This document shows positions 1 to 64,000 of a stretch of DNA of 64,000 nt, one piece after another. Every line of letters begins with the position of its first letter. The first letter of the stretch is position 1. The notes under the pieces are model-generated. The model was given only the letters and a program-made list of their open reading frames with translations. It searched no databases and was not told the origin of the DNA. A program made the position numbers and the translations under genes. This DNA is from Octopus vulgaris (taxonomy: Eukaryota), in contig OX597832.1 in NCBI GenBank assembly GCA_951406725.2, positions 1,054,001-1,118,000 on the forward strand. The letters run 5' to 3'.

Positions 1-360
1 AATTTTTTCTTTCAAACTGTTTTTTCCAAAATTTTAGTTTCCCCATATAACCCTTTATTTTCTGAGAAAAGGTAACCAAATCTGATTTTCTACCTTGCAA
101 CTTTAAGTTAAGCACATTCACTGTTCTAAAAATATCACTTGATTAACTATATTTTCTTTTTATTCTTAAAATATTCCCTACCTTTACCAACAGATGATGG
201 ATGCCTTAATTTCTGGTGCTCCTCCAACTTAACTTTTTTCATGGAATGATTTGTCATGATGGCATCACATTCCAGACACATAGGTTTTGAGTCTACAGAT
301 ACAAAACCAAACATGATAAAATCTTCTTTGTAGTTCCTCAGTTTTGCCTTTTTAGCAGTT
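1..360 (-). mobile_element. hAT (Buster/Charlie-like) transposase relic, internally deleted
   Basis: My manual minus-strand translation gives a BED finger, AKKAKLRNYKEDFIMFGFVSVDSKPMCLECDAIMTNHSMKKVKLEEHQKLRHPSSVGKGREYFKNKK (360-150). It is followed directly by SDIFRTVNVLNLKLQGRKSDLVTFSQKIKGYMGKLKFWKK, a motif from late in Buster/ZBED5-type transposases. Not in the ORF track. Confidence 0.8.
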
Positions 361-699
361 TGTTCAGATATTACAACTGATCTTAAACAAAATTAAAATA
401 ATAAATACTTTATTTCTATAAATTAAAAGTATTGTTTAGATCACTAAACAATATTGTGTAGTGATCTATTAAAAAATATCAAATTTATTATGAAACTGTT
501 GTGATTGTAAAATTTAAATTATGTAATTCTTAATTGTTGTAATACATTATTGATTATATATTATACATTATTGATTCTTATGGAATAATTATTGAATTTT
601 ATTTTCTTATTATTATTATTCTGTCTTCATATAAATTATTATTAACTAACAGTGTTTTTATTATCGAACAATATTGTGTAGATCTGAAATGGCTTCAAT

Positions 700-3600
700 T
701 TTTTATGGTTACAAATTCTCTGGGGAATTTTTCTGATACACACTTGTTTGATTTTGAAGTACATTGACTTGTAGATGTGAAGATTACATTTACCAAAGAT
801 TTCACTGATATCTCAAGCTTTCTCAGAAAATGTGAAGTTATAAAATGTTGAAGATGAGCATGAAGTTGCTTGGAAATTTAAAAATGAAAAATTCTTGTTT
901 TTTGATTAACTATATACTTCATGATCTTGAGATATACAATTACGTGTATATTAACCCATGACTTCTAAATCAAACAAGTGTGTGTCAGAGAAATGAAAGT
1001 CACACATGAGTATATAGTAAATTGGAAAACAAAAATTTTTCCTTAAAAAATTTTCAAGCAACTTCATGCTCATTTTCAACAACTTCAGGTTTTGTGAGGA
1101 AACTTCAAGGTTCAGTGAAATGTTTGGTATATCGTTCAGAGATATCAGTAATTTATTTTAACCAATTACTTGTGCATCCGATATATGTTTATGAGGAAAA
1201 TGAAATGTCACAAATGAGTAAATAGTAATTGCAAAATCAAGAATTTTCTTTTCAAATTTTCCACAGAATTTCATGCTGATTTGCAACTTCGTTTTCTTAG
1301 AAATTTTGAGATTTCATTGAAATGTGTGGTAAATATAATTTTCTCATCTAGAACTGAATTTATATTAATGCATGACTTCTAAATTAAACAAGTGTGAAAT
1401 GAAAGTCACAAATGAGTATATAGTAAATCGGATAATAAGAATTTTTCATTTCAAAATCTCCAATTTATGCTGGTTTTCAAGATTTTGCAACATCATGTTT
1501 TCTGAGAAGACTTGAGATTTCAGTGAAATGTTTGGTAAAAACATTCTTCACCTCTAACAGTTATAGTATATTATCCCTTTACTTCTGAACCAAATAAATG
1601 TTTTGTCAAAGAAATAGAAAGTCCTGAATGAGTAGAAAGTATACAGGCAAAGAATAATGTTTCAACTTGATGCTTATTTGCAATATTTTGTGACTTCACG
1701 TTTTCTGACATCTGTCAGTTGAACGAGTGATTGTGAGAAAAATTAAGTCACAAATGAGTAAGTAGTAAATGCGAAAAGAAGAATTTTTCATTCCAAAATT
1801 TCCAAACAACCTTATGATGATTTGCAATAGTTTTCTGAGGAAACTTCAGTGTTCAGTGAAATGTTTGGTAAATATATTATTCAGAGCTATCAGTTAATGT
1901 ATTTTAATCAATTACTTCTCACTCCGAGATATGTTTATGAGGAAAATGAAATGTCATGAATGAATAAATAGTAAATGCCTAAACAACTATTTTCATTTTA
2001 AAATTTCCAAACAATTCCATGCTGATTTGCAACATTTTGCAACTGCATGTTTTCTAAGAAAGTTTGCGATTTCAGTGAAATGTTTGGTAGATATAATCTT
2101 CACAACTTCAAGTTAATATATATTAACGCATGACTTCTAAATCAAACAAGTGTGTATCAGAAAAATTAAAGTAACAGATGAGTATATAGTAAATCGGAAA
2201 AAAGAATTTTTGGTTTCAAAATTTCCAATTTCTTACTGGTTTTTATCATTTTGCAACTTCATGTTTTCTGAGAAAGCTTGAGGTGTCAGTAAAATGTTTG
2301 GTAAAATTATTCTTCACCTCCTACAGTTAATGTATATTAACCCATTAATTCTGAATCAAACAAATATATGTCAAAGAAATATAAAATTATGTATGAGTAA
2401 AATGTATACGGACAAAGAATAATGTTTGAATTCAAAATTTTCTAACAATATCATGCTGATTTCCAATATTTTGTGACTTCAGGTTTTCTGATACCTGTCA
2501 GTTGGGTACGTGATTGTGTGAAAAATTAAAAGTCACAAATAAATAGTAAATGCAAAAAGAAAAAATTTTCATTTCAAGATTTCCAAACAACTTCATGCAG
2601 ATTTGCGACATTTTGCAACTTCATGTTTTCTGAGGAAAGTTCAGAGTTCAATGAAATGTTAGGTAAATATATTATTCAGACCGTCAGGTAATGTATTTTA
2701 ACCAATTACTTCTCCATCCAACACATATGTATGAGGAAAATGAAATGTCATAAATGAGAAAAGAGTAAATGCGAAAAGAAGAATTTTCATTTCAAAATTT
2801 CAAAATAATTTCATGCTGATCCGCAACATTTTTCTAAGAAAGCCTGAGGTTTCAATGAAGTGTTTGGTAAATATAATCTTCACATCTACAAGTTAATGAC
2901 CTCTAAATCAGACAACTGAGTGTCAGAAAAATGAAAGTCACAAATAAGTATATATTAAATTGGAAGGCAAGGATTTTTCATTTCAAAATTTCCAAACAAT
3001 TTCATGCTGGTTTGCAACATTTTGCAACTTCATATTTTCTGAGAAAGCTTGAGATTTCAGTGAAATGTTTGGTAAAAACACTCTTCACCTCTAATAGTTA
3101 ATGTATATTAATCCATTACTTCTGAATCAAACAAATGTGTGTCAAAGAAATGTAAAGTCATGAATGAGTAAACAGTATATGGGCAGAGAATAATTTTTCA
3201 ATTAAAAATTTTTCAATTTCGTGTTGATTTGCAACATTTTGTGACTTTACATTTTCTGTTAATGTATATTAAACTTTTACTTCAGAATCCGAGAAGTGTG
3301 TATCAAGAAAAACAAAGTGATAAATGTGTAAGTATTAACTGCGGAAACAAGTATTTCTGATTTCAAAATTTTCAAACACTATCTTGCTGGTTTGCAATAC
3401 TTTTCAACTTTGTTTTCTGAGGAAACTTCAGAGTTCTGTGAAATGTTTGGTAAATACAATCTTTACATCTATCAGTTGATGTATATTAAACTTTTTACTT
3501 CTCAATCCGACAAGTGTGTATAAAAAAAAGTGTGTATATGACAAGTGTTTGTCAGAAACATTAAGTCATAAATGTATAAATTGTAAATGCAAAAACAAGA

Positions 3601-4096
3601 ATTTTTAATTTCAAAATTTTCGAATGATTTGATGCTAATTTCAATCATTTTGTGACTTCATGTTTTCTGAGAAAACTTGAGAATTCAGTGAAATGTTTGG
3701 AAAATATAATATCACATCTATCAGTTAATATATATTAAACCTGTACTTTTCAATAGATGTGGAAATAGTAAGTGCAAAAACAAGAAATTTTTATTTCAAA
3801 ACATTCAAATAATTTCATGCTGATTTCCAACATTTTGTGACTTCATTTTTCTGAGAAAGCTAGAGATTTCATTGAAATGTTTGGTAAATACAATCTTCAT
3901 CTCCAACAGTTCATGTATATTAAACCATTACTTCTGAATGAAACAAGTGTGTGTCAAAGAATTATAAAGTCTTGAATGAGTAAACAGTATATGGGAAAAA
4001 AATAATTTTTCGTTTCAAAATCTTCAAAAAGTTTCATACTGATTTCCAACATTTTGTGATTACCTGTTTTCTGAAAAAATCTTGAAGTTTAGTGGT
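700..4096. repeat. AT-rich satellite, ~205-220-bp monomer, ~740-795-bp four-monomer higher-order repeat
   Basis: The anchor GAAATGTTTGGTAAA recurs at ~1117, 1319, 1525, 1858, 2077, 2291, 2653, 2857, 3062, 3440, 3690 and 3874. The variant monomer with ATGAGGAAAATGAAATGTCA recurs at ~1117, 1858 and 2653. The left boundary is approximate. Confidence 0.9.
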
Positions 4097-4170
4097 TGTT
4101 GTGTGGACGCCCCCAGACGATAAGTAGGCTAGTCCAATACGTATAGTGTACGTGATAGCTAGTCGTAGAA
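4097..4170 (+). mobile_element. Left part of a split Mag/Gypsy-type 5' LTR
   Basis: The satellite stops abruptly and TGTTGT starts at 4097. It pairs with an LTR end ATGACA (11726) and a PBS-like TGACGACGAGG (11728-11738). Confidence 0.55.
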
Positions 4171-4182
4171 GCATTGCGCAGA

Positions 4183-5716
4183 TTTTTTTAGTTGAGTTGT
4201 TGATAACGGAGTGTGTTTATCGTGAGAGCGTTAAATATTTGTTGATATTGTAAATTGTTGGTTTTTTTCCCCATTGGTGGAACAATGGAGAAAACGCTGG
4301 CGAGCGGCCACAACTGGAAATGGAATGGAGGAGGAAGCATTGGAAATGATTGAAGTTGGGGTGGAACCAGGAAAGGTGAAGGAATGTGAGAGGTTGCTGG
4401 TGGGAGAGGGAGATATGTAGAAGTTGGCGCCGCCTGCAGAACTGACAAGCAATGTAACAAAGTGAACAGTTGTATTTAACTCGATGAAAGGAGCAGCGAG
4501 AAGGATGGAGATTGCGACAGTGAAAGAGGTTGAGGAGTGTTTGAGAAGCATGAGGGGACTGACGACATTTGTAGCAGGAAGAGAGAGGTACGCCGCCGTT
4601 GAGATACGCTTTGTGACTGAGGAAGATGCAACGGAGGCATTAGGATCGTAGGAGTTGGTGCTTCTGCCTTCGTATTGTGGCAAACGTGCGGCCGGAGTGC
4701 GAGTAGGCAAAGTGCCCCCCAGAACTGAATGAAACATGGCTGTTGACAGCCATAATGTTCAACATGAGGGATGGGGCCAAGATGTTGAGGGCCACAGGGA
4801 CACATGGAATCAGCTGCTGGGGATGCAGGATCGAGCTCACTATCCGGGCAGCAATAGAAGACTTAAATTGGATTGCTGAGGAGATGGTGCTGCCAGACGA
4901 CTTGAGATTGAGGGTGGTGGTGGGGAGCAGGCCGCCGGTATGTTTTGCATGTAGGGAGAGGGGCCACATGAGGGCGGGGTGTCCACATGGAGAGCAGATG
5001 GAAAGGCGTGATAGTGCGGACCGGATGGTGCAGGTGGAGTTGGAGGAAGGAACAGCAGAGGAGAGATTCATGGTGGTGGAGGGAAAGGAAGGTAGAGGTA
5101 GGAGAGTGAGCCCGCCGCCGGGTGGCCAGAAAGAGAGGATGGAAGAGGTGGAAATGAAGGCTGCGACCAGAAGGAGGGAATACAAAAGGGTGGTGGCGAA
5201 GGGGAGTGAGGAGGTGATCGAAAAGGTATTGGAGAGGGAGTTGCAGAGGGAGGAAGCAGTGTTGAAGGCGCCGGTTGTTCCAGTGAAGGAGGGGGTTCAG
5301 GAGTGCAACTGTACGAGGGTGGAGTGGAGATGAAAAAGGAAAAGGTACCAGAAATGGAAGTAGAGAAGAGAGGAGCAAGAAAAGGGAAAAATAAATGGTA
5401 TTTCGTAACATATGCAAAAAACAAAGAGACAGAAAGAAAAATTGTAAAATTTAAGCATGTAATAAGAGTGAGGTTGTCCACGGATATGTATTCCGAAAAT
5501 ATGAAGGCCATTGTGGTCGACAAAGACACATACAAGAGACAGAGAAACATGCGCGGAGATAAGATTGACCCGCCCGGAGTGTTGGTGGAGTTTGACGAGC
5601 TGCCACCCGTAATTGAACCCAGACACTTGGAGCCTTTCATGAGGTATTAAAAAGGAAAAAAAAAAAAACAAGAGTAAGTAAAATTATTTTGTTGAAAGAA
5701 AAAAGAGAACAGAAAA
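4183..5716 (+). mobile_element. ORF1-only non-LTR element copy 1 (Tx1/L1-type gag-like ORF1), frameshifted, 3' tail lost
   Basis: RRM-like segment YAAVEIRF...LLPSYCGKRAAGVRVGKVPP, CCHC knuckle CFACRERGHMRAGC, E/K/R-rich linker, and C-terminal domain KWYFVTYAKNKETERK...EPFMRY ending at stop 5650. Homologous to copies 2-4. Confidence 0.8.
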
Positions 5717-6398
5717 GATCTGGTGTCGAAGAAATTCTTCATGGTAGACACCTGTTGTTGTAGCATTTGGCCTTTTCGTCTCACTGCAGACAAGCCTAAG
5801 CGTTCTTCCATTGTTTTGCACGCCATTGACTCGTCTCCTATAACTACCTTCGGTCAGATTTCTCTGCGCCTCGTTATTAATCTTCGTTGAGATTTTCAAT
5901 GGGTTTTCGTCGTCGCTGACATACTGCATCCTATTCTCGGTGCTGATTTCTTGGATCATTTTAATATATTGGTAGATGTTAGGCGTCGGAGGTTTCTCGA
6001 CAGTACCACGTCGCTCTCCACGCCGACCAGAGGTTCTACCAATGCGGTTCTTAGCCCGACATATGTTGTTGCCACCTCTGGAGACGCCTTTCATTCTCTT
6101 TTGGCTTCATTTACTGAGCTAGTGAACATTACTTTTCAGCTGGCAAAGCCTGCCCACTCGACCCTTCATTTTATTACCACCACTGGGCTGCCTGTTTTTT
6201 CGCGCCCACGGTGCCTTGCGCATGACCGTCTAAAAATGGCTAGGGCCGAGTTTGAGCACATGCTCCAACATGGCCTGATACACCCCTCCACCTGCCCATG
6301 GGCGTCTCCCCTTCACTTGGCGCGAAATTGGGAGTCTGATTTGCGATCGGTAGGAGATTATCGTCGCCACAATGCAGTAACAATACCAGATTGCTACA
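5717..6398 (+). mobile_element. Ty3/Gypsy pol fragment (protease to RT N-terminus, CsRn1-like)
   Basis: FFMVDT...FQWVFVVADILHPILGADFLDHFNILVDVRRRR...PVFSRPRCLAHDRLKMARAEFEHML...PWASPLHL...VGDYRRHNAVTIPDCY. Confidence 0.85.
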
Positions 6399-6695
6399 CC
6401 CCATATGAATTCTTCAGGGTTAGGGTATCTTTTTTTCTTCGCAAATGTAAATAAACCCAATCTGTTTCTTAAACGAGGGACATATTCATACAGCACGGAA
6501 TGTTGTTTACGTCAATGGAGGTCAGCGATTGGTTAAAATTGCCGAAATGCTCGAAATTAAAGTCGAAATATGTTACAACATATAGAATTTTCTCAATAAA
6601 GCCAAGAAAAAATGATGTTTTATAAACACATTCTACCAGTATACGAAGTTTAAAAGTGTTTAGTTAACTAGAAATTGTGTTGAAAACTGCCGTTC

Positions 6696-8714
6696 AAAAG
6701 GAAATGTGGAAGAAAAAACAACGGAGGAAGGATTCACGGTGGTGGAAAGAAAAAGAAAGAGAAGTGGAAGAGTGAGCCCGCCGCCAGGCAACCAGAAAAA
6801 GAAGAAAGAAGAGGTGGAAATGAAAGCTGCGACCAGAAGGAAGTGTAGTATGAATGGTGAAAGGAGTACAACAGAACAAGGAAAGGAATGGAAATGTAAT
6901 TGGGTCTTACCTGGCCGGAGATGAACTCGGATCGCCTTTAGCCAACTCGCTCGCGTCCTGTCTTCTTGGTGTCTTCGTCGTGTCTGCGCAACTGGTCAAT
7001 GCCGCACGTGCGTTCTGTCTGTCACTTCCGCTTCCGCCGGCGCATGCGCCCTGCAAGACCTGCAAGACCCACTTCCGCCCCCCCCCCCATTCCGTCACAC
7101 TCCTTCACCATCACACCACACGCCCCCCTGATCTATAGATCACTGAACCGGCTTCCTCACTCGCTCCCGCACCTAAAACTGGTTTCATAATCAGCTAACC
7201 AGGGAGGAGGGTGCCGCTCCCTCTGTGGTCGCAGTGCGACCCTAGGACTTGTTTCTGGTGTGTTGCTGCCGACCTCGTCATCCTGTCTGTTGTTTTCGTC
7301 TTGCCCACTGTTGCTTGTCCCATCCTCTGGGGCATGGACAATCCTCCGTAAGTCGGATCTCCACTTTATCTGCGCTGAGTTGGTCCGTCTCCTCCATCTC
7401 TAGATATAACGCCAACGCCGGGCCATCCAAATACAACGGCATAAAACTAGCCAGGTCAGCTATACCGTGTAGCTTCGCCACCAACTTTACCCTCTTCAAC
7501 CAAGCGACCACATCGGTGTCGCCGCAAAACGGTGTTATAGGCTCGCGTGAAACCATAGCACTCTGCATAATTTTCTATTTTTATTTTTACGAAACCGAGT
7601 GATTATTTGCCGAAATAGCTTGTAGTATGAATGGTGAAAGGAGTACAACAGAACAAGGAAAGGAATGGAAATGTAATTGGGTCTTACCTGGCCGGAGATG
7701 AACTCGGATCGCCTTTAACCAACTCGCTCGCGTCCTGTCTTCTTGGTCTCTTCGTCGTGTCTGCGCAACTGGTCAATGCCGCACGTGCGTTCTGTCTGTC
7801 ACTTCCGCTTCCGCCGGCGCATGCGCCCTGCAAGACCTGCAAGTCCCACTTCCGCTCCCCCCCACCATTCCGTCACACTCCTTCACCATCACACCACAGG
7901 AAGGAAGATAAAAGGGTGGTGGAGAAAGAAAGAGAAAAAGTAATCATAAAAGTGTTGGAGAAGGAGTTATAGAAGAAGGAAACAGTGTTGAAGACGCCGG
8001 TTATTCCAGCGAAGGAAAAAGATTCAGGAGTGCAACTGTACGAGGGTGAAATGAAGAAATTGTTCTGAGTGGAGATGGAAAAGGAAAAGGTACCAGAAGT
8101 GAAAGTAGAAAAGAGAAGAACAAGAAAAGAAAATAAATGGTATTTCGTAACATATGCAAAAAACAAAGAGACAGAAAGAAAAATTGTAAAATTTAAACTT
8201 ATCATAAGAGTGAGGTTACACACGGTTATATATTCCGAAAATGTGAAGGCCATTGTGGTCGACAAAGACACATACAAGAGACTGAGAAACATGTGCGGAG
8301 ACAAGCTTGACCTGCTCGGAACGTTGGTGGAGTTCGACGAACTGCCACCCTTAGTTGAACTAAGAGACTTGGAGCCTTTCATGAGGTATTAAAAAGGAAA
8401 AAAAGAGTAAGTAAAATTATTTTGTTGAAAGGAAACAAAAAAGGAAAAAGTAAAAATGATTCATGTAAAACAAAGAAGAGACAAAAAGATGATTAAGAAA
8501 AAACAATAGAAAAATAGAACGATTGTAAATAGTGAGTATAAACGTTCAAATGGTACTGCATGGGAGTGGGGCCCATGCAGCCATTTCATTTCTTCATTTT
8601 TATATAATATCTCATTCTCATTCGTTTTATGTTTGATGCCCCCATTGTGGTGTTGTGTCTGTCCTTGTAGTGTCCTCCTCTCTGTTGTGGCCGTAGTGCC
8701 AAATAAAGAAATAA
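6696..8714 (+). mobile_element. ORF1-only element copy 2 (5'-truncated, interrupted by an LTR element at 6844-7898)
   Basis: Collinear with copy 1 (RVSPPPG, EEVEMKAATRR, KWYFVTYAKNKETERK...EPFMRY, stop 8392). Followed by a 3' UTR, a hairpin at 8548-8586 and an AATAAAGAAA tail. Confidence 0.8.
6844..7898 (-). mobile_element. Miniature (TRIM-like) Gypsy LTR retrotransposon with 5-bp TSD GGAAG
   Basis: Direct LTRs at 6844-7120 and 7621-7898 (TG...CA, about 5-6 differences). TSD GGAAG at 6839-6843 and 7899-7903. Minus-strand polypurine tract at 7121-7134. The 500-bp interior has a gag start (ITPFCGDTDVVAWLKRVKLVAKLHGIADLASFMPLYL) and an integrase tail (RERHPPPWLADYE). Confidence 0.92.
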
Positions 8715-10296
8715 GCGTCGCGTAGAGAATTTTTGGTGGTTTGTTGTGTTTTGATTTCGCTCACATGTGAGCTGTTGCTTTGTTTGGTTGAATTGCTGAA
8801 TTGTTGAAATTGTGATTGTTGAATTTGTAATTTTTTGAATTCATTGAAAATTTTGTGACTTCCCCATTTATGCGTGAAGCAGTGAATAACGGAAATATGC
8901 TGGTTCAAACGGGCTGTTATGCGGCAGTGACGGGCAAAAGCCTGACAGCTGAGCTACTGCAGATACGCGAATTAGAAGTGAAGGATATGGACTGTAAGAA
9001 GTTTAATACCTTGTTGGAGAAGGAAGGAGGATGCCTACAGCTGACAACCCCCAAGGAAAGGACAGAGAAGACAGAGAGAAAAATCATTACTTATAGAACA
9101 TTGAATATAGCGACAAGGAAGGTGGAAGTAGCAGGCGTTGAAGAGATAGAGGAATGCTTAAAAGATGTGACAACTTTCTACAACAGAGGAAGAAAATTTG
9201 GCACGGTGGAGGTACGCTTCGTTAATGAAAACGAAGCAAAGAAGTACTCTACCATAGCCTTGAAATCAGCACAGTGGGCACTCTTGCCTACTTATTGTGG
9301 CAGACGCGCAGCCAGTGTGGGGATAGGGAGAGTGCCACCCGAAATTAACAAAGACTGGCTTGTGGCAGCCATCCTCTACAATACAGAGGAGAAAGTAGAG
9401 ATATTGAAAATATCAAAGACAGTGGAGGTCAACTGGTGGGGATATGGCCTAGAGGTGATGGTACTTATCAGCCTGCCTGATCTCCACAAAATGATAGAAG
9501 AGATAGTCCTGCCCGATGAGACCAGACTGAGAGTCATGGTGGAGGGTGACCACCAATATGCTTCCAATGTGGTGCAAGGGGACACATAAAAGCAAAGTGT
9601 CCCCGGAAACATGCACAAGAGGTGGTGGAGAAGGATCGTCAGGAAGAAGTAAAAGTAATAGCAGAGGAGGAAGTAGAGCTCACTGAAGTAGAGATGAGAG
9701 GAAATAGTGAATCTCCACCGAAAAAGAAAAGAAAAACAGAGAAAAAGGAAAAAAAGAAAAATGAAGCAACGGGAGAACAAATACAAGCGCCGGAGCCTTC
9801 AACAAGTAAGGAGGAGGAGGTTTAGAGAAGGCCACGTAAAAGAAAACACGAAAGAATGATGGTGATGTACGAGAAAAGTATAGAAATAGAAAAGCGAATT
9901 GCAAAAACGAAAGGTGTAATAAGAGTGAAACTGGCAGATAAGGAGGCGGATTGAAAGAAGAAGCAGTGTTGTTTGATGACGAAAAAGCAGCTAGAAGGAG
10001 ATATTTGGAAGTAGGATGGATAATGCACCATACGGGTTCAATACAATGAATTACCACCAGTGGTAAATTTTGAAGATCTAATGGGGGGGGGTTCTGATAT
10101 AAAAACGATACAAACTGAATTGTAAAAACAGTAAAATGGAACTTTCTATTTTGGGGGGTAGAAAGCCATTTCATTATCATAATTCTTCACACCTCATAAC
10201 TCATTCGTTAATCGTTATATATACCCATGTTTGTGTTGTCTGTCCATGTAATGTCCTTTCTATAAATAAGGCTTTATGCCTATAATAAAGAAAAAA
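8715..10296 (+). mobile_element. ORF1-only element copy 3 (apparently full length, ~1.58 kb)
   Basis: ORF 8855-9589 (CYAAVTGKSL...RGRKFGTVEVRF...LLPTYCGRRAA). It frameshifts into a CCHC knuckle (CFQCGARGHIKAKC) and then a decayed C-terminal domain (EIEKRIAKTKGVIRVKL...VQYNELPPVV). Hairpin at 10134-10171 and AATAAAGAAAAAA tail. Confidence 0.82.
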
Positions 10297-11601
10297 GCGT
10301 CGCATAGAGAATTTTTGAGTTGTTGATTTAGTCTGGCGATAACGTTGTTGTTGAGAGCGGTGAGTTATTGGACCTTAAATTTTTGAAACTGTTATATTGT
10401 TGGAATTTTGTTAATTATTGTTGAATTTGTTTCTTTCTTCCCCATTTTTGGGTGAAGATATGGAAGCTGGCAGTTACGCTGCGGTGACAGGCAAAAGCCT
10501 GTCAGCCGACATGCAGCAACTGAAAGAAGTGAAGTTAAAAGACAAAAATTTTTTAAAGTTTAATGGACTGTTTGAAAAGGAAGGGGATTTCCTCCGGTTG
10601 GCGTCACCTGTCGAATTTTTGCAAGAAGCCGAGAAGAAAATTATTGTGTATCGCATATTGAACATTGAAACAAAACATGTGGAAGTAACAGAAATTGAAG
10701 CCATAGAGGGGTGTATACGGGAAGTCAAAGAAGTGATCACTTTCTATGCCAGAGGAAAGAAATACGGCACAGTGGAGGTGCGTTTCATGAACGAAGAAGC
10801 AAAAAAGTACTCCACTGTGACTTTGAGAACGGCCAATTTACTGCGGAAAACGAGCCGCAAGAGTGAGGATAGGGAGAGTGCCCCCGGAAATAGACGAGAC
10901 ATGGCTAGTGGCAGCCATCTTCTATAACTGTGAAAATGAAGCAGAAGTAATTAAGGTGGAGAAGTCTAATGAGATAAATTGTTGAGGTTATGGACTAGAA
11001 GTGATAGTCTATATAGCCCTACCAGACTTGCATAAAATAGTAGAGGAGCAGGTGCTCCCCGATGAGACCCAACTGAGAATATGTTATAATGATAGAAGTA
11101 GGGGACACATGCAGGCGAAGTGTCCCCATAAACAGGAGGAATGTTATAATGATAGAAGTAGGGGACACATGCAGGCGAAGTGTCCCCATAAACAGGAGGA
11201 ATTGGAGAAAAACCGGGCAGAGATGGTAACGGCAGTGGTGGAGGAAGAAAAGAAAGTAGAAGAAAGTGGTAAACAAGAAAAGGACAAGTGCAGAGTCACT
11301 GCCAAAAAGCCCGAAAAAAAAAGGCGGCAAAAGCACAAGAGAAAGAGGAAGAGAATGTAATTCGAACCCTGGAACCGGAGCCGACAACAGGTAGGAGTCA
11401 AGAAGAGAGATATGAGAGGTGGAGGAAGAGGATAAGCGAAAAAATAGCGCAAATGAGGCAGTCAAGGCAGCCGAGAGGATAGATTATATTATTCATTTTT
11501 CATATTTGCATACGTCTTTTTATGTACCCCATGTTTTGTGTTGTCTGTCCTTGTGATGTCCCTTCTATTTTGAGGCTTTATTCCTATAATAAAGAGAAAA
11601 G
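10297..11601 (+). mobile_element. ORF1-only element copy 4 (~1.3 kb, C-terminal domain deleted)
   Basis: SYAAVTGKSL...RGKKYGTVEVRF; degenerate knuckle CYNDRSRGHMQAKC duplicated (11081-11200); same 3' tail TGTCTGTCCTTGT...AATAAAG. Confidence 0.8.
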
Positions 11602-11791
11602 GCGTCACGTAGAGCAAACTGAAGCCGTCGGTCGACTAGATGTCGAGTCGTCGGAAGTGAGAGTTCGGTAGTTGAGTAGAAGTACATTATTGGCGAAGGC
11701 ACGCCATCCGAATGTGCGATATGACAGTGACGACGAGGTTTCGAATAGTACCGAAATGGAAGAGTTATTGAAAGCAGTTGTCAACAGCAGT
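11602..11791 (+). mobile_element. Right part of the split Mag/Gypsy LTR, PBS and gag start
   Basis: LTR end ...ATGACA at 11726, then TGACGACGAGG (one mismatch to the Mag-type PBS TGGCGACGAGG), then ATG at 11756 reading MEELLKAVVN. Confidence 0.6.
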
Positions 11792-11985
11792 GGAGCGCAA
11801 TGGCCCAATGGTTAGGGCAGCGGACTCGCGGTCGGAGGATCGCAGTTTTGATTCGCAGACCAGGCGTTATGTGTGTTTATTGGGCGAAAGCACCTAAAGC
11901 TCCACGAGACTCCAGCAGGGGTGGTAGCGACCCCTGTTGTACTCTTTCGCTCCAACTTTCTCTCACTCTTTCTTCCTGTTTCTTG
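11792..11985 (+). mobile_element. tRNA-derived SINE (5' part)
   Basis: tRNA-like head GGAGCGCAATGGCCCAATGGTTAGGGCAGCGGACTCGCGG with an A box and a degenerate B box (GTTTTGATTCGC). Confidence 0.7.
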
Positions 11986-12024
11986 TCCCCGACTTCCTAC
12001 GCAACCACTGAGTCTGGATGCGCA

Positions 12025-12356
12025 TTTATCCATCTGTCGTTGAAAGAAAACGCGGTGCCGGTGTTCAAACCGAAAAGGAATGTACCTTTTGCGGCGTTAA
12101 ATCAAGTTGAGAAGGAATTAAAAAGATTGGAAAACATGGAGGTAATTGCAAAAGCAGATTACTCTGAGTGGGCGGCTCCTACTGTATATATAAAAAGAAC
12201 AACAAAATAAGAGTATGTGCGGACTTCTCAACTGATCTTAATGATTGTTTAAAAAATTACAATTATCCGCTTCCAAACCCAGAAGAAATATTTGCTAAGT
12301 GCAATGGTGGGAAAATTTTTTCCAAGCTGGATTTGTCAGAGGCCTACCTCCAAATT
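12025..12356 (+). mobile_element. Gypsy (Mag / K02A2.6-like) RT N-terminal fragment
   Basis: LKENAVPVFKPKRNVPFAAL...SEWAAPTVYIK, a frameshift, then KIRVCADFSTDLN...YPLPNPEEIFAK...FSKLDLSEAYLQI. Confidence 0.85.
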
Positions 12357-12894
12357 TGCTGGTTCCCCAGAACTTCGTAGAAGTTGTGTGGGTTTTTTAC
12401 TACCCAGTTCTTCGTTGTTAAATAATTTTGCGAATTCTTTTTGCTTAGAACTTGACGTACGCTTCAATATTTCTTCTTTAATGGATGAATACGAAACTGG
12501 TTCCATAGGGTTCAGCAGCAAACCCCTGATTTCATTGCTTAGAGGTGGAGGCAAATTACTAAGCATGATGTTGTACTTCTGTTCTTCATTTGTTATTCTG
12601 TTAGCTTTGAAGCTTGCCTCTAGTTGTGCCAACCAAATTACAGTGTCTCCAGTCCACGGAGGACAATTCAATACATTGACAGAAGCTTGTGTGTAACTTC
12701 TGTCGAAGTATGATGTCTCGAATTCTTTTTTTTCCTGCTCCATTATATTTGTGAATATATATATTTTTTTGTTTTTTCGTTTTTCTTAAAAGGTTTCTTC
12801 TTCAGCGTTCTCTTGTGTCAATAATTCCGTAACTTATTACTGTCTGCGTAGTATATACGAATGGCTGCGTATTTGAAAACGTTCGGGTCACCAG
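12357..12894 (-). mobile_element. Gypsy (CsRn1-like) gag N-terminus with tRNA-Trp-like PBS
   Basis: ORF starting at 12743: PPWTGDTVIWLAQLEASF...LGSKKPTQLLR. PBS TGGTGACCCGAACG (minus strand, 12893-12880) lies 1 nt after an LTR end ...CTTACA. Confidence 0.8.
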
Positions 12895-13821
12895 TGTAAG
12901 AAATACGAACGCACGTGGTCGCATTGGGTAGGGAATACGATCGCACGTGGTCATATTCTTAACGAATTATTACAAGCCATAAATACATGCAGTAACAACA
13001 GAACATAAGTGAATTGACGACAGCGTGGCAGTTTCAGCCATTTTGAAATATGACTATAGCGATTTCTAATATCTTCACTATTTGAAAGGCAAGACAGAAA
13101 TTATCTCGTTTGAGGTTACAGCCATCTTTGGCCAACTTGTTCCTGTTGTAAACACTAACCTGATTGGTTGACACGTGACGCGATTTGTCTCCACTTATTT
13201 TCGCACCACTGTCCCGAAACAACCAATCACGGCCTTTGGTTAAGATTCCATTTCTGAAGCTCGTTTGAGCCACCCAACCGGTATATAAAGGAGTGTTTTC
13301 AGACACTTTTTGTCTTTGGTTCCAGTCCTTGTAAGGACTAACTTCAGACCACAGAGCTACTCAACCCGGCGACAGACGATTGCTCCTGCTACAACTAGCG
13401 ACGATGCTAATGTACACTCACCACAGAAAGCCTACTACCTTCGCCGTCGCCACCATCATGTACCAACTTCGAGTCGCCTCTAACATCTTCGCCATACAAA
13501 CTGTAAACCAATTTCCATTATTAATTCTATGCTTTGTACCTTTCTATGCCACATGCATTCACCCTGATTGTATCTGTCACACACACGAACACACAGACAC
13601 AAAAACGTGTTGCATACGCACATACGTGCTAACACTTACAAACTTCTAACATCAGCACGATTGTAAATAAAATGATATTTATCTCTCAACCGAAGGCTTG
13701 TCGTCAATTCACTAATGTTCTTTTGGTATTGCATTGTATTTATGGCTTATAATAATTCGTTAAGACCACGTGCGATCGTATTCCCTACACAATGCGACCA
13801 CGTGCGTTCATATTTCTTACA
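12895..13821. mobile_element. LTR region with ~125-bp inverted ends (TGTAAG...CTTACA)
   Basis: 12895-13022 is the reverse complement of 13699-13821 with a few mismatches and indels. On the + strand there are a CCAAT (~13223), a TATA-like TATATAAAG (~13282) and an AATAAA (~13666). Confidence 0.75.
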
Positions 13822-15085
13822 GTCACAAATGAGTATATAGTAAATCGGAAAATAAGAATTTTTTATTTCAAAATTTCCAAAACATTTTGTGCTGTTTTGC
13901 AACATTTTTCAATTTCGTTTTCTGAGAAAGCTTGAGATTACCGTTAAATGTTTGGTAAAAACACTCTTCACCTCTAATAGTTAATGTATATTAACCCATT
14001 ACTTCTAAATCAAACAAATGTGTGTCAAAGAAATGTAAAGTCCTGAATGAGTAAACGGTATATGAGCAGAGAATATTTCAATTCAAAATTTTCAAACAAT
14101 TTCATGCTGATTTGCAACATTTTGTGACTTCATGTTTTCTGTTAATGTATATTAAACCTTAACTTCTGAATCCGAGAAGTGTGTATCATAAAGAATAATG
14201 TGATAAATGCTTGCAACATTTTGCAACTTCGTTTTCAGAGTTCCGTGAAATATAATCTTCACATCAGTTCTCGATCCCACAAGTGCTTCTTAAAAAAAGT
14301 GTGTATGTATGATGAGTGTTTGTCAGAAAAATTAAAATTCATGTGTAAGTAGTAAATGTGGAAACAAGAATTTTTTATTTCAGTATTTTTGAAACAATTT
14401 CATGCTAATTTCAAACATTTTGTGACTTTATATTTTCTGAGAAAGCTTGAGATTTCATTGAAATGTTTGGTAAATCTTCATCTCCAACAGTTAATGTATG
14501 TTAACCCATTACCTCTGAATGAAACGAGTGTGTGTCAAAGAAATATAACGTCACGAATGAGTAAATAGTGTATGGGAAAAGAATAAATTTTCATTTCAAA
14601 ATCTTCAAACAATTTCATTCTGATTTCCAACATTTTGTGACTTCATATTTTCTGAAAAAGCTTGAATTTCAGTGAGTATATAGTAAATCGGAAAGGAAAC
14701 ATTTTTCGTTTCAAAATTTCCAAACAATTTCATGCTTGTTTGCAACATTTTGCAACTTCATGTTTTCCGAGAAAGCTTGAGACGTTAGGTAAATATAATC
14801 TTCACAAAAAGCAGTTAATGTTTATTCACTCAATACTTTTCAATCGAAAACTGAGTGTCAGAAAAATGAAAGGCAGAAGAATTTTTCATTTCAAATTCTA
14901 TCAAAGAATTTCATTCTGCTTTCCAATCTTGTGATTTCATATTTTCTGAAGAGGCTTGAAATTCAGTGACATGTTTGGAAAATATATTCTTCACCTCTAT
15001 CTGTCAATGTACTTTAAACATTTACTTCTGAATCTGCGAAGTTTGTATCATAAAAAATATTGTAATGTAATTGTTTTCGCACTTA
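13822..15085. repeat. Same ~215-bp satellite, resumed after the retroelement nest
   Basis: GTCACAAATGAGTATATAGTAAATCGG and AAATGTTTGGTAAA monomers. Confidence 0.9.
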
Positions 15086-15287
15086 TGAGGGTTAGTGTTA
15101 GGGTTGGGTTAGTGGTAGGGGTATAGTGAGGGGTAGGGCTAGGGCTAGGTTTAGAGTTAGGGTTAGGAGCAGGGTTAGATTTATATATTTGTTTTCGCAT
15201 TTTAAAGTGTTAGGCTACTGATAGGGTTAGGTTTAGGGTTATGGTTAGGGCTAGAGTTAGGTTTAGGGTTAGTGTTAAGTTTAGGTT

Positions 15288-15447
15288 AACAACAATAACA
15301 ACAACATCAAAAAATACCTTAGGAATGAGAACCCAGGTTCGAAATTTCCCCAAGACACCTGATGAAGGCTGGAGGGTATATCAGCCGAAACGTTGTGTTA
15401 ACTATCAAGACGAGGACAAATCAATTGTAAATAATGTAAATAATGTA
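15288..15447 (+). mobile_element. Penelope-like element terminal (pLTR) fragment
   Basis: Non-satellite, non-telomeric insert carrying a minimal hammerhead motif, which is a hallmark of Penelope-like pLTRs. Confidence 0.55.
15354..15399 (+). ncRNA. Minimal type I hammerhead ribozyme motif
   Basis: GACAC-CTGATGA-A-GGCTG-(GAGGGTATAT)-CAGCC-GAAA-CG-TT-GTGTT. Stem I is GACAC/GTGTT, the CUGAUGA and GAAA core is intact, stem II is GGCTG/CAGCC, and stem III is the palindrome AACGTT. Confidence 0.75.
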
Positions 15448-18061
15448 TTTCAGTGAAATGTTTGGTAAATATAACCTTCACATCTGTCTGTTAATGTATA
15501 TTAAACCTTTATTTCTGAAACCGACAAGTGTATATCATAAAAAATAAAGTCATAAGAGAATAATATATTTGTTTTCACATTTAAGAGAAAGTCGCGTGAG
15601 CATTTCGTAACCCGAAGAGCAGGAAGGGTGAGGGTTAGGGATTAGTGTAAGGGATAAGATTAGGGTTAATGTACAGTTTCGGGTTAGGTTTAGGGTTAGG
15701 GTTAGTGTCAGGGTTAGCGTTATATTCAGGGTTAGTGTCAGTATTAGGGTTAGGGTTAGCGTTTAAGGTTTAAGGTGAGGGTTAGGTTAGGTTTAGGTTT
15801 AGGGTAAGGGTTAGGGTTTGGGCTAGGGTTTAGAGTTGAGTTCGAGTTACGGTTAAGTTTAGGGTTAGGGTTAAAGTTAGTATTATGGTTAGGGTTAGTG
15901 TGAGGGTTAGAGATAGTTTTATGTTTTAGGGTTTAGTGTTAAATTTAGGGTTAGGGTTAGAGTGAGGGTTATGTGAGGAATAGTGTTAGAGTTAGGGTTA
16001 TGGTTGGGGTTGGTATTATGGTTAAGGTTAGGTTTAGGGTGTGATCTAGGGTTAAGGCTAGGTTTAGAGTTAGGGTTAGTGTTAGTGTTACGGTTAGCAT
16101 TAGCATAATGGTTTAGGGTGTACGGTTGGGTTAGGGTTTGGGATAGGGTGATGGTAAGAGTTAGTGTTAGGCTTAGGGTTAGGGTTCGGGTTAATGTTAT
16201 GGTTAAGGTTAGAATTAGGGCGAGGGTTAGGTTTAAGTTTAGGGTTATGGATAGGTTTAGTGTTGGTGTTAGGATTAGGGTTAAGGAGAGGGTCAGAGCT
16301 AGGGTTAGGGTTATGGTTAGAATTAGGGTTAGGGTTAAGATTAGGGTTAGGGTTAAGGTTAGCATTAGTGTTAGGGTTATGGTTTGGGGTAGTGTACGGA
16401 TTAGGTTTATTGTTAGATTTAGGATTAGGGTTAGGTTTCGGTTTTTGGTTAGGGTTAGGATTAGCGTAATAGTTTAGGGTGAATGCTTGTGCAAGGGTTT
16501 GGGATAGGGTTAGGTTTAGATTTAGTTTTAGGGTTACTGTTAGTGTTAAGTTTACGGTTAGGGTTAGGTTTAGTTTTAGTATGAAGGTTAAGGGTTAGTG
16601 TTACGGTTAGGTATAAGCTTAGATTTAGGGTGAGGGTTAAGGTTATTGTTAGGGTTAGGGTTACGTTCTGTGTTATGTTTAGGGTTAGGTTTAAGGTCAG
16701 CGTTAGTATTAGGGTTAGGTTTAGGGTTAGGGATAGGGTTGGGGTTAGTGTTAGGGTTAGTGTAAGTGTTGGGGTTAGGGTTAGGGTAAGGGTTATGGTT
16801 AGTGTTAGGGTTAGAGTTAGTGTTAGGTTTAAGGTCAAGGTTAGGTTTAAGGTTACGGTTAGTGTTAGGGTGAGGTTTAGGGTTAGGGATATGTTTAGGG
16901 TGAAGGACGGGTTATGGTTAGGTTTAGGTTTAGTGTTAGGGTTGGGGATAGGTTAGGTTTAGGGCCAGGCTTAGGGTTAGGGTTTGGGGTAGTGTTAGAG
17001 TTAGGGTTAGGATTATTGTTACGTTGATGGTTAGAGTTAGGGTTAGTTTTAAGGTTAGGGTTAGTGTTAATGTTAGTTTTAGGGTTAGAGTTAATGATAA
17101 GTTTAAGGTTAAATGGAAGGTAATGGTAATGGTTAGGTTTAGTGTTAGGGTTCTATGGTTAGGTTTAGTGTTAGGGTTCTATCTAGGGTTAGGGCTAGGA
17201 TTAGGGTTAGATTTAGGTTTAGTTTTAGGGTTAGCATTAGGTTTAGGGTTAGGGTTTGAGTTAGCTTTAAGGTTAGGTTTAGATTTAGTGTTAGGGTTAA
17301 GGTTAAGGTTATGGTTAGGCGTAGGTCTAGTGTTAGGTTCAGGGTTAGGTTTAGTGTTAGTCTCAGTGTTTAGGTTTAATGTGACGGTTAGGTTTAAGCT
17401 TAGGATTAGGGTGAAGGTTAGGGATAGGTTTGGTATAAGTGTTAGGGTTAATGTAAGTTTTAGTGTAACCCTAAAACTTTAGGGTTAGGGTTAGGTTTAG
17501 GCTTAGGGTAAGGATTAGGGTCAGAGTTAGGGTTAGGGTAAAAGTTAGGACTAGTGTTAGGGTTAGGGTTATGTTTATTGTTAGGTTTGGGTTAAGTTTA
17601 GGGTTAGGGTAGAGTTAGTGTAAGAGTAAGGGTTAGGGTTAGGTTTAGTTTTAGGGTTTCGGTTAGGGTTAGGAGTAGGTGTAGGGTGAAGTTTAAGGTT
17701 ATGTTTAGTGTTAGTGTTTGGGTTAGGGTTAATGTAAGGGTGAGGTTTAGGGTTAGGGTTAGGGATATGGTTATGTTTAGTGTTAGTGTTTGGGTTAGGG
17801 TTAATGTTAGGGTTTGTGTTAAGGTTAGGTTTAGGGTTAGGGTTATGGTTAGGATTAGGGTTTGGATTAAGGTTACATTTAGGGTTAGGGTTAGGGCTAG
17901 GTTGAGTGCAAGGTTTAGGGTTAGGGTTTGGATGAGTTTGAGGGTTAGGTTTAGGCTCTAGGGTTGGGGATAGTGTTAGGGTTAGTGTTAGGGTTAGGGT
18001 TTGGTTTAGGGTTAGGTTTAGGCTTGGGTTCGATTTAGGTTTAGGTTGAGGGTTAGGGTTA

Positions 18062-18603
18062 TTAAATGTAAAAACAAATATTTCTCATTTGAAAATTTTC
18101 AAATGATTAGTTAATGTATATTAGCCAATTACCTGTCAATCGGAGAGTGATTGTCAGAGAAATTAAAAGTCATAAATGTGTAAATATAAATGCAAAATCA
18201 AGAATTTTTCATTTCAAAATTTCCAAACAATTTCATGCTAATTTCCAACATTTTGCAACTTCATGTTTTCTGAGGAAACTTTAGAGTTCAGTGAAATATT
18301 TGGTAAATACAATCTTCATCTCTAACAGTTAATGTATATTAACCCATTACTTCTGACTGAAACAAGTGTATGTCAAAGAAATATAACGTCACAAATGAGT
18401 AAACAGTATATGGGAAAAGAATAATTTTTCATTTCAAAATCATCAAACAATTTCATTCTGTTTTCCAAGATTTTGTGACTTCAGTGAGATGTTTGGTAAA
18501 TATATTCTTCGTGTATGTTAAACCTTTACTTCTGAATCCGCCAAGTGTGTATCATAAAAAAACAATATCATAAATGTGTAATATATTTGTTTTCTCATTT
18601 AAG
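18062..18603. repeat. Satellite island inside the telomere-like array
   Basis: About 2.5 monomers of the same ~215-bp satellite. Confidence 0.9.
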
Positions 18604-21600
18604 AGGGTTATGGTTAAGTTTAGTGTTAGGGATGGGGTTAGGGTTAAGGTTTGGGTTGGGTTAGGGTTACATTTAGGCTTAGTGTTAGCGTTAGGGTTAG
18701 GGTGAGGGTTAGGGTTAGGGTAATGGTTAGGTTTCGGGGTAGGCTTATAGTTAGGGTTAGGGTTCAGGTAAGGGTTAGGTTTAGGGCTAGCGTTAAGTTT
18801 AGGGTTTGGATTTAGGGCTAGTGTAAGTGTCAGGTTTATTGTTAGAGTTAGGGTTACAGTTAGGGTTAGGTTTAGGTTTAGGGTTAGGATTAGGGTAAGT
18901 GTTAGGTTTAAGGTGAGGGTTAGGGACAGAGTTAGGGTTAGTGTTAGTGTGAGGGTTACGGTCAGGGTAATGGTTAAGGTTAGATTTAGTGTTAGTGTTA
19001 GGGTTAGGGTCTGCTTTAGGTTTAGGTTTAGGGTTTGGGTTAGGGTTTGGTTTAGTGTTAGGGTTAGTATTAGGGTTAGTGTTAGGGTTAAGGTTAGGAT
19101 TAGGGTTAGGTTTAGGGCTAGCATAAAGTGTAGGGTTAGGTTTAGGGTTAGTGTGTTAGGTTTAGGGTTAGTGTTATGGTTAGGGTTAGAATTAGGGTTG
19201 GGCGTAGGGTTAGGTTTAGGGTTAGGTTTGGAGTTAGGTTTAGGGTTTGGTTTCGGGTTAGGTTAAGGGCTAGAGTTCAGGATAGGGTTAGGGTTATGGT
19301 TTCAGTTAGGGTTAGGATTAGGGTAAGACTTATGGTTAGTATTAGTGTTAGCGTAGGTTTAGGGCTAAGATTAGGTTTAGGTTTAGGGCTAGTATTAGGG
19401 TTAGGGCTAGGTTTAGGGTTAGGCTTAGAGTCAGGGTTAGGTTGAAGATTAAGGTTACTGTTAGGCTTAGGTTTAGGATTAGTGCAAACTTTAGGTTTAG
19501 GGTACGGTTAGGATTAGGGTTAGTGTTTGGGTTAGGTTTAGGATTAGAGTTAAATTTAGGGTTAGTTTTGTGGTTAGGGTGAGGGTTAAGTTTAGGGTTA
19601 GAGTTCAGTTTAGGCTTAGGGATAGGGTTAGGATTAAGGTTAGGGTAAGGCTGAGTGTTAGGGTTATGGTTAGGGTTAGTGTTAGGATTAGTTTAGGTTT
19701 AGGTTTATTAGTTAGGTTTATGGTTAAGGTTAGAGTTAGGTTTAGGGTTAGGGATAGGAATATGGTTTGGTTTAGGGTTAGGGTTAGGTTGAAGTTTAAG
19801 GTTAGTGTTAGGTTTAGGATTAGTGCAAACTTTGTTTAGGGTTAAGTTTAGGATTAGGGATAGTGTTAGGGTTAGGTTTAGGTTTCGAGTTAGGGTTAGA
19901 CTTATTTTTAGGTTGAAGGTGAGGTTTAGGGTCAGGATTTTGGTTAAAGTTATGGTCATGTTTTAGGGTTAGGGTTTGTGTTGCATTTAGCGTTAGGATT
20001 AGTTTTAGAGTTGGGGTTATGGTTATGATTAGGATTAGAGTTAAATTTAGGGTTAGTTTTGTGGTTAGCATTAGGTTTAGTGCTAGGGCTAGACATAGGG
20101 TTAGTGTTTGATTTAGCGTTAAGTTTAGGGTTAGATTTAGGGTTAAGGTTAGTGTTAGTACTAAGGTTAGGGTTAGAGTTAGGATTTGGGTTAGGGTTAA
20201 GTTTAGGTTTAGCATCAGGATTAGTGTTAGGGTCATGGTTACTTTAAGTGTTACGGCTAGGGTTAGTGTTAGGGTTAGGGTTAGGTTTAGTGTTAGTATT
20301 AGGATAAGGGTTATCGTTTGGGTAAGGGTTACATTTAGGGTTAGGCATAGGGCTAGTGTTAGGGTTAGGTTTAGGTTTATGCTTAGTGTTAGTGTTAGGT
20401 ATAGGATTAGTGCAAGCGATAAGATTAGGGTTAGGTTTAGGCTTAATGCTAGGGTTAGTTTTAGGGTGAGGGTTAGCGTTGGGGTTAGGGTTAGATTTAG
20501 GGTTAGAAATAGGGTTAATATTAGGGTTGGCGTTAACATTAGGGTTAGGTTTATGGTTAAGTTGAGAGTGAGGTTTAAGGTAAGTTTTCGGGCAAGTGCG
20601 AGAGTTAGGTTTTAGGGTTAGCTTTAGTGTTAGGTTTAGTGTTAGGTTTGGGGTTAGCATTAGGTTTTTGGTTAGGTCTAGTGTTAGGATTAGGTTGAGG
20701 GTTAGGAATAGATAGTGGGGTAGGTTTACGGTTAGGTTTAGGGTTAATGTTAGGGTTAGTGTGAGGTGTAGATTTAGGTCTAGGTTTAGGTTAAGTTTAT
20801 GATTAGGGTTGGGTTTCGTGTGATTGTTAGAGTTAGGGTTAGGGTTGGGGTTAGGACTAGTGTTAGGGTGAGGGATATGGTTTATGGTAGGGTTAGGTTT
20901 AAGGTTAGGTTTAGGTATAGTGTTAGGGTTAAGGTTAGGGTTAACGTAAGGGTTGGTTTCGGGTAAGGTTTAAGGTTAAGGTGAGGTTTAATGTTAAGGT
21001 TTGAGTTCATGGTAGGGTTAGCATTAGTGTTAGGTTTCTTCGTAGGTTTAGCGTTAGAGTTAGGTTTAGGTTAGGTTTAGTGTTTGGTTTGGATTTGGGT
21101 TAGTTTTAGAGTTAGGTTAAGTGTTAGGATTAGGGTTAGGTTTAGGGTAGTTTTAAGGTTACTATTACCGTTAGGCTTAGGTTTAAGTTTAGGGTTAGGG
21201 CTAGGGCTTGTGTTAGGTTATGTTCAGGGTTAGGTTTAAGTTTAGTGTGAGTGTTAGGGTTAGGGTTAGTGTGAGGACAAGGGTTAGGGTTAGTTTTAAT
21301 GGTTAGCGTTAGGTTTAGTGTTAGAGTAAGACAGGGTTCGTGTTTGAGTTAGGGCAACGGTTAGGGTTAGTGCTAATGTTAGGGTTAGAGTTAGGGTTTG
21401 GGTTAGGGTTTGGTTTAGGAGTTAGGGCAACGGTTAGGGTTAGTGCTAATGTTAGGGTTAGTTTTAGGGTTAGGTTTAGGTTTATGGTTAGTGTTAGTGT
21501 TAGGGATAGGATTAGTGTAAGCGATGGGATTAGGGTTAGGGTTAATGTTAGCTTTACTGTTAGGGTGAGGGTTAGCATTGGGGTTTTAGTTAGGGTTACA

Positions 21601-22888: not shown

Positions 22889-23107
22889 GCAGTGAGCTGG
22901 CAGAAACGTTAGCACGCCGGGCGAAATGCTTAGCGGTATTTCGTCTGTCGTTACGTTGTGAGTTCAAATTCTGCCGAGGTCGACTTTGCCTTTCATCCTT
23001 TCAGGGTCGATAAATTAAGTACTGGGGTCGATGTAATCGACTTAATACCTATGTCTGTCCTTGTTTGTCCCCTCTATGTTTAGCCCCTCGTAGGTAATAA
23101 AGAAATA
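22889..23107 (+). mobile_element. tRNA-derived SINE, full length, with 12-bp TSD
   Basis: Head GCAGTGAGCTGGCAGAA...GAGTTCAAATTC, core GTCGACTTTGCCTTTCATCCTTTCAGGGTCGATAAA, tail AATAAAGAAATA. TSD GGTATTATTTAG at 22877-22888 and 23108-23119. Confidence 0.9.

Positions 23108-63251: not shown

Positions 63252-64000
<749 letters not shown>

Follow-up and report, generated by a model that had tools for sequence, protein, structure and literature searches.

How an element that encodes no reverse transcriptase (RT) might have its RNA copied is the question raised by a stack of four related repeats in the genome of Octopus vulgaris. The stack lies in contig OX597832.1 (assembly GCA_951406725.2), inside the stretch of 64,000 nucleotides analysed here and called the window (positions 1,054,001 to 1,118,000 of the forward strand), whose own numbering is used throughout. 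Each unit carries a single broken gene resembling the ORF1, or first open reading frame (ORF), of long interspersed nuclear elements (LINEs), and two of the units carry a bulged RNA hairpin in the 3' tail. The hairpin is a real fold, fully paired in both copies, and it is probably under selection. We lean towards reading it as a cis-acting signal in the 3' tail that marks the element RNA for recognition and copying by the RT of a partner LINE, which would probably be a member of the Tx1 group; to this reading we give somewhat more credence than doubt. A stem-loop in a LINE-type tail is by itself expected in kind, and the choice of RNA by RTs of the L1/Tx1 type is settled mainly for the poly(A)-reading mammalian L1.

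The initial annotation placed such hairpins at 8548-8586 (copy 2) and 10134-10171 (copy 3), and both strings were found there, with folds matching its description. The lower stem is AAAUGG/CCAUUU in both copies, identical at 12/12 bases, with a two-nucleotide bulge on its 5' side. Lower stem, bulge and G-rich loop are thus kept, as had been claimed, with the correction that what the loops share is specifically the word UGGGG, unchanged between the two copies while the stem beneath it differs. The upper stem has 9 bp in copy 2, and 7 Watson-Crick pairs plus 2-3 U-G pairs in copy 3. When the copies are aligned in the register of the stem, four of the first seven upper pairs are changed on both sides and none is broken (G-C>U-A, C-G>U-A, A-U>C-G, G-C>A-U), while pairs 8-9 go from G-C in copy 2 to U-G in copy 3. 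The further claim, that the upper stem stays fully paired through compensatory changes, is borne out on the evidence of two copies. Simulated independent substitution retained all seven pairs after at least four changes in the 5' arm in 0.07-0.7% of cases (8 parameter sets). The register chosen by MAFFT gives 3/6 upper pairs as double-changed, and a pair-shuffle control (56/500) cannot discriminate, since the alignment has two rows only. The minimum free energies are -19.8 kcal/mol for copy 2 (z -3.23) and -11.7 kcal/mol for copy 3 (z -3.31), each equalled by one of 200 shuffles, and the pairing holds when the whole 3' tail is folded (pair probabilities 0.69-0.99). In copy 2 the ORF stop is 155 nt upstream of the hairpin and the next border of the unit 126 nt downstream; in copy 3 the hairpin begins 8 nt past the stop of the last coding frame. 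A stem kept by compensatory change, a conserved loop and a bulge, the marks of a stringent LINE 3' stem-loop, are all found here, in two copies. Neither a pattern scan nor a covariance model built on the two sequences, which recovered its own inputs only (next best E 0.1), gave a third hairpin in the window, and Rfam 15 (ribozymes, iron-responsive element, selenocysteine insertion sequence, histone stem-loop and others) gave no match at E up to 5 over 4000-14000.

The four units stand head to tail on the + strand at 4184-11599, each consisting of a T-rich 5' untranslated region (UTR) and one broken gene. Likeness is ~83% between copies 1 and 2, ~65% between copies 2 and 3 and between copies 3 and 4, and 83% between the tails of copies 3 and 4; with such divergence the stack is not a recent tandem duplication. 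No ORF2, endonuclease or RT follows the gene in copies 2-4, where the way from ORF to tail and junction is at most 170-330 nt of non-coding sequence. The N-terminal 239 residues of the encoded protein were modelled with a mean predicted local distance difference test score (pLDDT) of 82.6, and seven structures matched the model at E under 0.001, mostly pairs of RRMs and with low TM-scores. A zf-CCHC knuckle follows the RRMs, then a lysine/glutamate (K/E)-rich linker and a small C-terminal domain common to the relatives. The protein is a type I ORF1, in which an RRM stands directly upstream of a CCHC knuckle. Type I is defined in PMC4120745, which assigns it to several clades besides Tx1, and it is therefore not diagnostic of Tx1. 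None of 27 aligned members gave a Pfam match to Transposase_22, the ORF1 type of mammalian L1.

A HMMER search returned 396 relatives of the protein. Eight of the ten looked up belong to Octopus bimaculoides, O. sinensis, O. vulgaris or Argonauta hians, and two are without a species name. No RT motif occurs among the best 150 of the 396, where one GDLN word was seen. Word-index protein searches met the family in 0/4693 candidates, in 1/8000 and in 0/1366 long proteins, the last being weak evidence on fusions. Three relatives (P0012, P0037 and P0137) were considered as true fusions and rejected; they carry WD40, LDL-receptor and astacin domains and look like gene-model chimeras. The Octopus gene models P0012, P0037, P0137 and P0009, in which pieces of ORF1 are fused to WD40, LDL-receptor or astacin genes or which are named EPM2A-interacting-like, are probably annotation errors arising from unmasked copies.

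Related copies elsewhere were sought in contigs from four of 24 public sequencing runs, aligned to 8380-11780 at 80% likeness, a comparison in which summed depth is not copy number. Of the aligned features, 40 of 1191 substitutions, 12 of 211 indels, 15 of 186 joints, 12 of 70 joint inserts, 24 of 1709 loose ends and 32 of 4471 pieces are listed. Summed contig depth steps up 6.6-, 9.8-, 7.1- and 30-fold in the four runs at the bin of the copy-2 hairpin, and 8.9-, 11.5-, 7.0- and 6.5-fold at that of the copy-3 hairpin. It remains high from hairpin to tail, with near-identical pieces at depth 17-36. Because the step recurs in 4/4 runs, the region common to most relatives starts at about the hairpin, as expected of a conserved tail with 5'-truncated copies. 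Between knuckle and tail, copy 4 falls short of copy 3 by ~265 nt. Tails of its type are joined to hairpin-bearing sequence in all four runs (10161>11527 and 8607>11542), few stretches have less depth than 11230-11457, and one X14 contig departs from copy 4 at 11445 and continues for ~210 bases; for these reasons copy 4 looks like a rare deletion form. An exact 62-bp tandem duplication lies across its zinc knuckle (11081-11202). The joints listed include tandems of tail and short tail at other loci (8711>8517 in X1, 8726>8585 in X14), a border motif followed by a 5' end elsewhere (11619>8740 in X2) and, again at other loci, tails that lead into the right-flank sequence of this stack (11568>11645 in X1 and X2). 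A search for related loci in viral contigs gave none. A tail pattern matched nothing in viral or prokaryote contigs; in metagenomes it matched two loci, which by blastn have no relation to the element.

Beyond the hairpin, the element ends in AATAAAGAAA and not in a long poly(A). Most of the sequence conservation lies in the tail: between copies 2 and 3, tail plus junction are identical at 24/26 positions, against 27/59 in the 60 nt upstream. A second small stem had also been proposed before the poly(A) signal; it is present, with 4 bp, but is not significant alone (z -1.17 for each of two copies) and has one mismatch in copy 4. Its GGC..GCC arms are retained around differing loops in 5/5 of the loose ends listed there (majority lines, agreement 0.64-0.69). 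The interpretation given in the initial annotation is supported in part. Its assignment of the hairpin to the tails of ORF1-only elements holds for copies 2 and 3, but these are only two of the three copies with an intact tail. Its view of a selected structure agrees with the invariant lower stem, the paired double changes, the conservation step in 4/4 runs and the ORF1-only protein, while the covariation itself is limited to two copies.

The borders of the units bear on how they were inserted. A check for a target-site duplication and an A-rich tail found the 15-bp motif AAGCGTCGCGTAGAG at four borders (11-15 of 15) and, as tail, only the end sequence given above; sites as good as the 11/15 match number six in the whole window. 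Before copy 1 no tail precedes the motif, and after copy 4 no element follows it. These two outer sites rule out the motif as the element's own end, and because of them it reads as host-site sequence duplicated at each insertion. The outer flanks are CpG-rich with ~50% GC, against 27-32% in the satellite and the 5' UTRs, and the word TGACGACGAGG in the right flank resembles a primer-binding site. An RT piece of Ty3/gypsy type follows at 12204-12374, with a weak RVT_1 match and a match to PDB 4ol8, which we take to be the Ty3 RT. To judge from these sequences, the stack appears to split a Ty3/gypsy long terminal repeat (LTR). The window holds no tRNA gene. The coordinates of the features are collected in Table 1.

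Table 1. Positions of the units, their borders and the elements of their tails in the window.
Feature	Position	Strand	Remarks
Bulged hairpin, copy 2	8548..8586	+	6-bp lower stem, UA bulge, 9-bp upper stem, loop AGUGGGG
Bulged hairpin, copy 3	10134..10171	+	lower stem as copy 2, AA bulge, 7-10-bp upper stem of different sequence, UGGGG in loop
Copy 1	4184..5717	+	T-rich 5' UTR, broken ORF1-like gene to 5650; unrelated insert removes tail before hairpin position
Copy 2	6707..8712	+	3' half only; nested element at 6844-7898; ORF stop 8390-8392
Copy 3	8728..10294	+	complete unit: 5' UTR, broken ORF, tail with hairpin
Copy-3 ORF domains	8870-9586; ~9556-9604	+	two RRMs; CCHC knuckle; then K/E-rich linker and small C-terminal domain
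Copy 4	10310..11599	+	5' UTR, broken ORF from 10460; without C-terminal domain and hairpin
Junction motif, copies 2/3	8713..8727	+	15/15; putative target-site duplication
Junction motif, copies 3/4	10295..10309	+	14/15
Junction motif after copy 4	11600..11614	+	13/15; both differences have the 8713 form in other contigs
Decayed junction motif before copy 1	4169..4183	+	11/15; chance ~5e-5 per site
Left flank	4097..4168	+	starts TGT directly after AT-rich satellite, 49% GC, CpG-rich; putative left LTR part
Right flank	11615..11780	+	50% GC, CpG-rich multicopy repeat; TGACA end at 11726, TGACGACGAGG at 11728-11738, ATG at 11756
Small 4-bp stem-loop before AATAAAGAAA tail, copy 2	8688..8701	+	UGGC/GCCA
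Small stem-loop, copy 3	10269-10281	+	AGGC/GCCU
Small stem-loop, copy 4	11573-11585	+	one mismatch
Conserved tail block	8651..8675; 10232-10256; 11537-11561	+	ends TGTCC(T/A)TGT(A/G)(A/G)TGTCC; 3 matches, 0 expected
CCCCATT motif, copy 2	8640..8646	+	~55 nt 3' of hairpin; complementary to entire copy-2 loop, pairing predicted
CCCCA counterparts	10224-10228; 11527-11532	+	CCCAT (copy 3); CCCCAT (copy 4)

If the hairpin is a signal for a partner enzyme, the unit would be transcribed and its RNA coated by its own ORF1 protein. The endonuclease-RT of the partner would then bind the tail, reading the shape made by the invariant lower stem and the bulge; the upper stem would act as a spacer that needs only to pair, and the small stem with the A-rich end would form the priming end. 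The partner would nick a preferred site in a Ty3/gypsy LTR and use target-primed reverse transcription to copy the RNA, leaving a duplication of 15 bp. Since every such duplicate would be a new target, different subfamilies could come to stack in tandem.

Several known systems share parts of this arrangement. Within the Tx1 group, SINEU-3, which is mobilised by Tx1, forms tandem copies around a 16-bp target-site duplication inside a transposon, and two Tx1 families prefer LTR retrotransposons (PMC4494074). Insertion into a transposon, tandems sandwiching a duplication of ~15 bp and, in some families, a preference for LTRs would link the octopus units to Tx1 elements and their passengers (SINEU-3, Tx1-Mar, Tx1-8_Crp, Tx1-4_AMi; PMC4494074). 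In contrast to those passengers, the octopus element is protein-coding and not derived from small nuclear RNA, and since it has neither ORF2 nor RT it is placed by ORF1 type and layout. The Tx1-like layout itself, a repeat as target and tandems around a duplication, is seen at this locus and at a few joints elsewhere, with one other spacer and a low junction depth. RRM/CCHC variants of ORF1 are said to be consistent with Tx1 (PMC5203782), and L1-Tx1 is represented in O. vulgaris by 13 families with recent activity (PMC13282606). In the literature searched, a 3' stem-loop is not described for any Tx1 element. In L1-clade tails, stem-loops with compensatory changes, variable paired stems and fixed loop words have been described (PMC3472496), and the tail of UnaL2 requires its bulge (PMC4176376). 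The octopus hairpin resembles these stringent tails (UnaL2, ZfL2-1/2, monocot LINE1-1_ZM) in its variable paired stem, conserved loop word, bulge and position in the 3' tail (PMC3472496, PMC4176376), a likeness of shape; it differs in being larger (15-16 bp with a 2-nt bulge), in lying ~125 nt from the end and in being followed by a second small stem. HAL1 of mammals has ORF1p only and borrows ORF2p (PMC5753468), and the octopus units are likewise ORF1-only. Their ORF1, however, is of type I with two RRMs and a CCHC knuckle, whereas that of HAL1 is of the Transposase_22 type. Further differences are the host, a mollusc, the structured tail, the shortness of the A-rich end and what looks like a preference for a target. 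The octopus element works like HAL1 and is not HAL1 itself.

A number of observations weigh against recognition of the hairpin by a Tx1-type RT. It ends 123-126 nt before the junction, beyond the last ~45 nt described for a stringent plant L1 (PMC3472496), and the RT may in fact act at the small stem. One unit, copy 4, lacks the hairpin. A partner LINE did not come to light: the model search of autonomous LINE tails that the initial annotation had suggested gave no match, in that the two other LINEs of the window are without the hairpin by covariance model. The assignment to Tx1 draws on ORF1 type and layout only and is to that extent provisional. Two copies amount to a single comparison, and no stem position is among the 40 substitutions listed of 1191 in the four runs. 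The indels listed include one-base insertions in the upper stem (8562 and 10160; 10-28% of depth where seen) with no visible change in the partner strand, and one X14 contig has an A in place of the G that closes the upper stem in both window copies. As for the target, depth at 11601 is just 11-192, against 219-7242 in the preceding tail bin, and one tandem joint (8711>8517 in X1) carries a different spacer, so that the element may at most prefer this target. In the contigs of the four runs an empty target site was not encountered.

The same distance from the end would suit a hairpin that is selected for another purpose, such as packaging, stability or 3'-end formation, for example as a site for the element's own RRM-CCHC protein, with the RT reading only the A-rich end or the small stem. 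We regard this as unlikely, although it deserves serious attention. The hairpin of copy 3 stands close behind the stop, the encoded protein is a tandem RRM with a knuckle, reading of poly(A) is described for most elements of the L1 clade (PMC3472496), and the 41 nt past the internal junctions, with 73-78% T+G, have the composition of a poly(A) element of the downstream kind. A shared partner enzyme, however, would account equally well for the depth step and for conservation across subfamilies with ~65% likeness, and binding is a prediction in either case. Compatible with recognition by a partner RT, but in our view rather improbable, is a role of the loop in long-range pairing, either with the CCCCA 55 nt downstream (a pseudoknot) or with one before the start codon, a 5'-3' kissing contact that would bend the RNA into a closed loop and make translation or full-length copying depend on an intact tail. 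An invariant UGGGG above a variable stem suggests such pairing. The downstream CCCCAUU is predicted to pair with all 7 bases of the copy-2 loop at -10.4 kcal/mol and is the best site in the copy-2 tail (shuffle chance 0.02), and TTCCCCATT stands directly before the ATG in 3/3 intact, otherwise T-rich 5' UTRs (CCCCATT at 4269 in copy 1, 8862 in copy 3 and 10440 in copy 4), with predicted loop duplexes of -9.6 to -10.2. On the other side, the downstream site of copy 3 makes only four pairs (-6.5; shuffle chance 0.23) and is outscored by another site, the match was noticed after the fact, and CCCCA may instead be a word bound by a protein. As the four pairs are invariant, they show no covariation, which leaves pseudoknot and 5'-3' contact as hypotheses only. 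A little less probable again is the full combination, in which a large octopod ORF1-only family homes into a Ty3/gypsy LTR, the hairpin recruits a Tx1-type RT and the UGGGG loop pairs with CCCCAUU before the start codon, closing the RNA 5'-to-3' and favouring the copying of full-length transcripts that make ORF1. A virus-like end-to-end signal of that kind was not met for a non-LTR element in the literature searched.

The two remaining explanations do without an RNA signal for copying. Template switching, a mechanism described in PMC8794818, could have made the upper stems: one mutation would suffice to copy an arm from its partner, selection would then be less than the compensatory pattern suggests, and the hairpin might be close to neutral. 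Upper stem and loop, identical at 11/24 bases between copies 2 and 3, do look replaced as a block, and the fold forms equally stably on either DNA strand. Yet the identity of the lower stem, the UGGGG loop and the conservation step in four runs would be left unexplained, and arm copying would erase the 2-nt bulge that has been retained; we consider this origin quite improbable. Lastly, the units might be a cluster of host genes or pseudogenes (a domesticated ORF1, ZCCHC3-like) spread by local duplication, with the hairpin an ordinary 3' UTR element of an mRNA. Look-alikes in the atlas include ZCCHC3 RNA-binding domains (scores 0.87-0.90), and the annotation of relatives presents them as host proteins. 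None of the four genes is intact, however, there are no introns, the borders are sharp with a repeated 15-bp motif and unrelated flanks, and many related tails and short tail-only tandems occur in the four runs, which makes a host cluster very improbable. Recognition of the hairpin by a partner LINE remains the reading towards which we lean.

The stack belongs to a nest of mobile elements at 4095-13821 that breaks an AT-rich satellite (1-4094 and 13822-15040); a degenerate TTAGGG-like array follows at ~15100-32000, with satellite islands near 18200. A HeT-A-like telomere element was considered and rejected, the stack lying in AT-rich satellite and LTR-like flank ~3.5 kb from the degenerate TTAGGG array. 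The element nested in copy 2 (6844-7898) is small, non-coding and resembles a terminal-repeat retrotransposon in miniature, with two 278-bp repeats 98% alike, TG..CA ends and a 5-bp GGAAG duplication on both sides. The sequence that removes the tail of copy 1 (5718-6400) resembles the protease-to-RT region of an LTR retrotransposon, with no Pfam match. A segment at ~11787-11990, which interrupts the gag-like start of the right flank, resembles the tRNA-like head of a short interspersed nuclear element; ARAGORN and Rfam are silent on it. On the - strand, an LTR-like segment at 12896-13821 has inverted-repeat ends of 128 bp (89%), unusually long for an LTR; after it come a word like a primer-binding site and a gag-like ORF at 12743-12339 (DUF7041, E 1.9e-17). 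Of the two other LINEs, one (49742-52838) has an endonuclease, an RT that is broken and, downstream of the RT region, a PHD finger, and the other is a fragment on the - strand (61177-63322).

In the literature searched, neither an ORF1-only octopod element nor such a hairpin is described, and repeat libraries (Repbase and the library of PMC13282606) may hold the family as L1-Tx1 or as unknown. A diverged passenger family in many copies with a defined bulged hairpin would offer covariation data from nature and a recognition signal that is short and can be tested, for an enzyme that is probably site-preferring and so of the class of interest for targeted gene insertion. If the reading is true, the half-LINE strategy would have arisen independently in a mollusc, and some hundreds of 'uncharacterised' octopod proteins would be reclassified as transposon ORF1.

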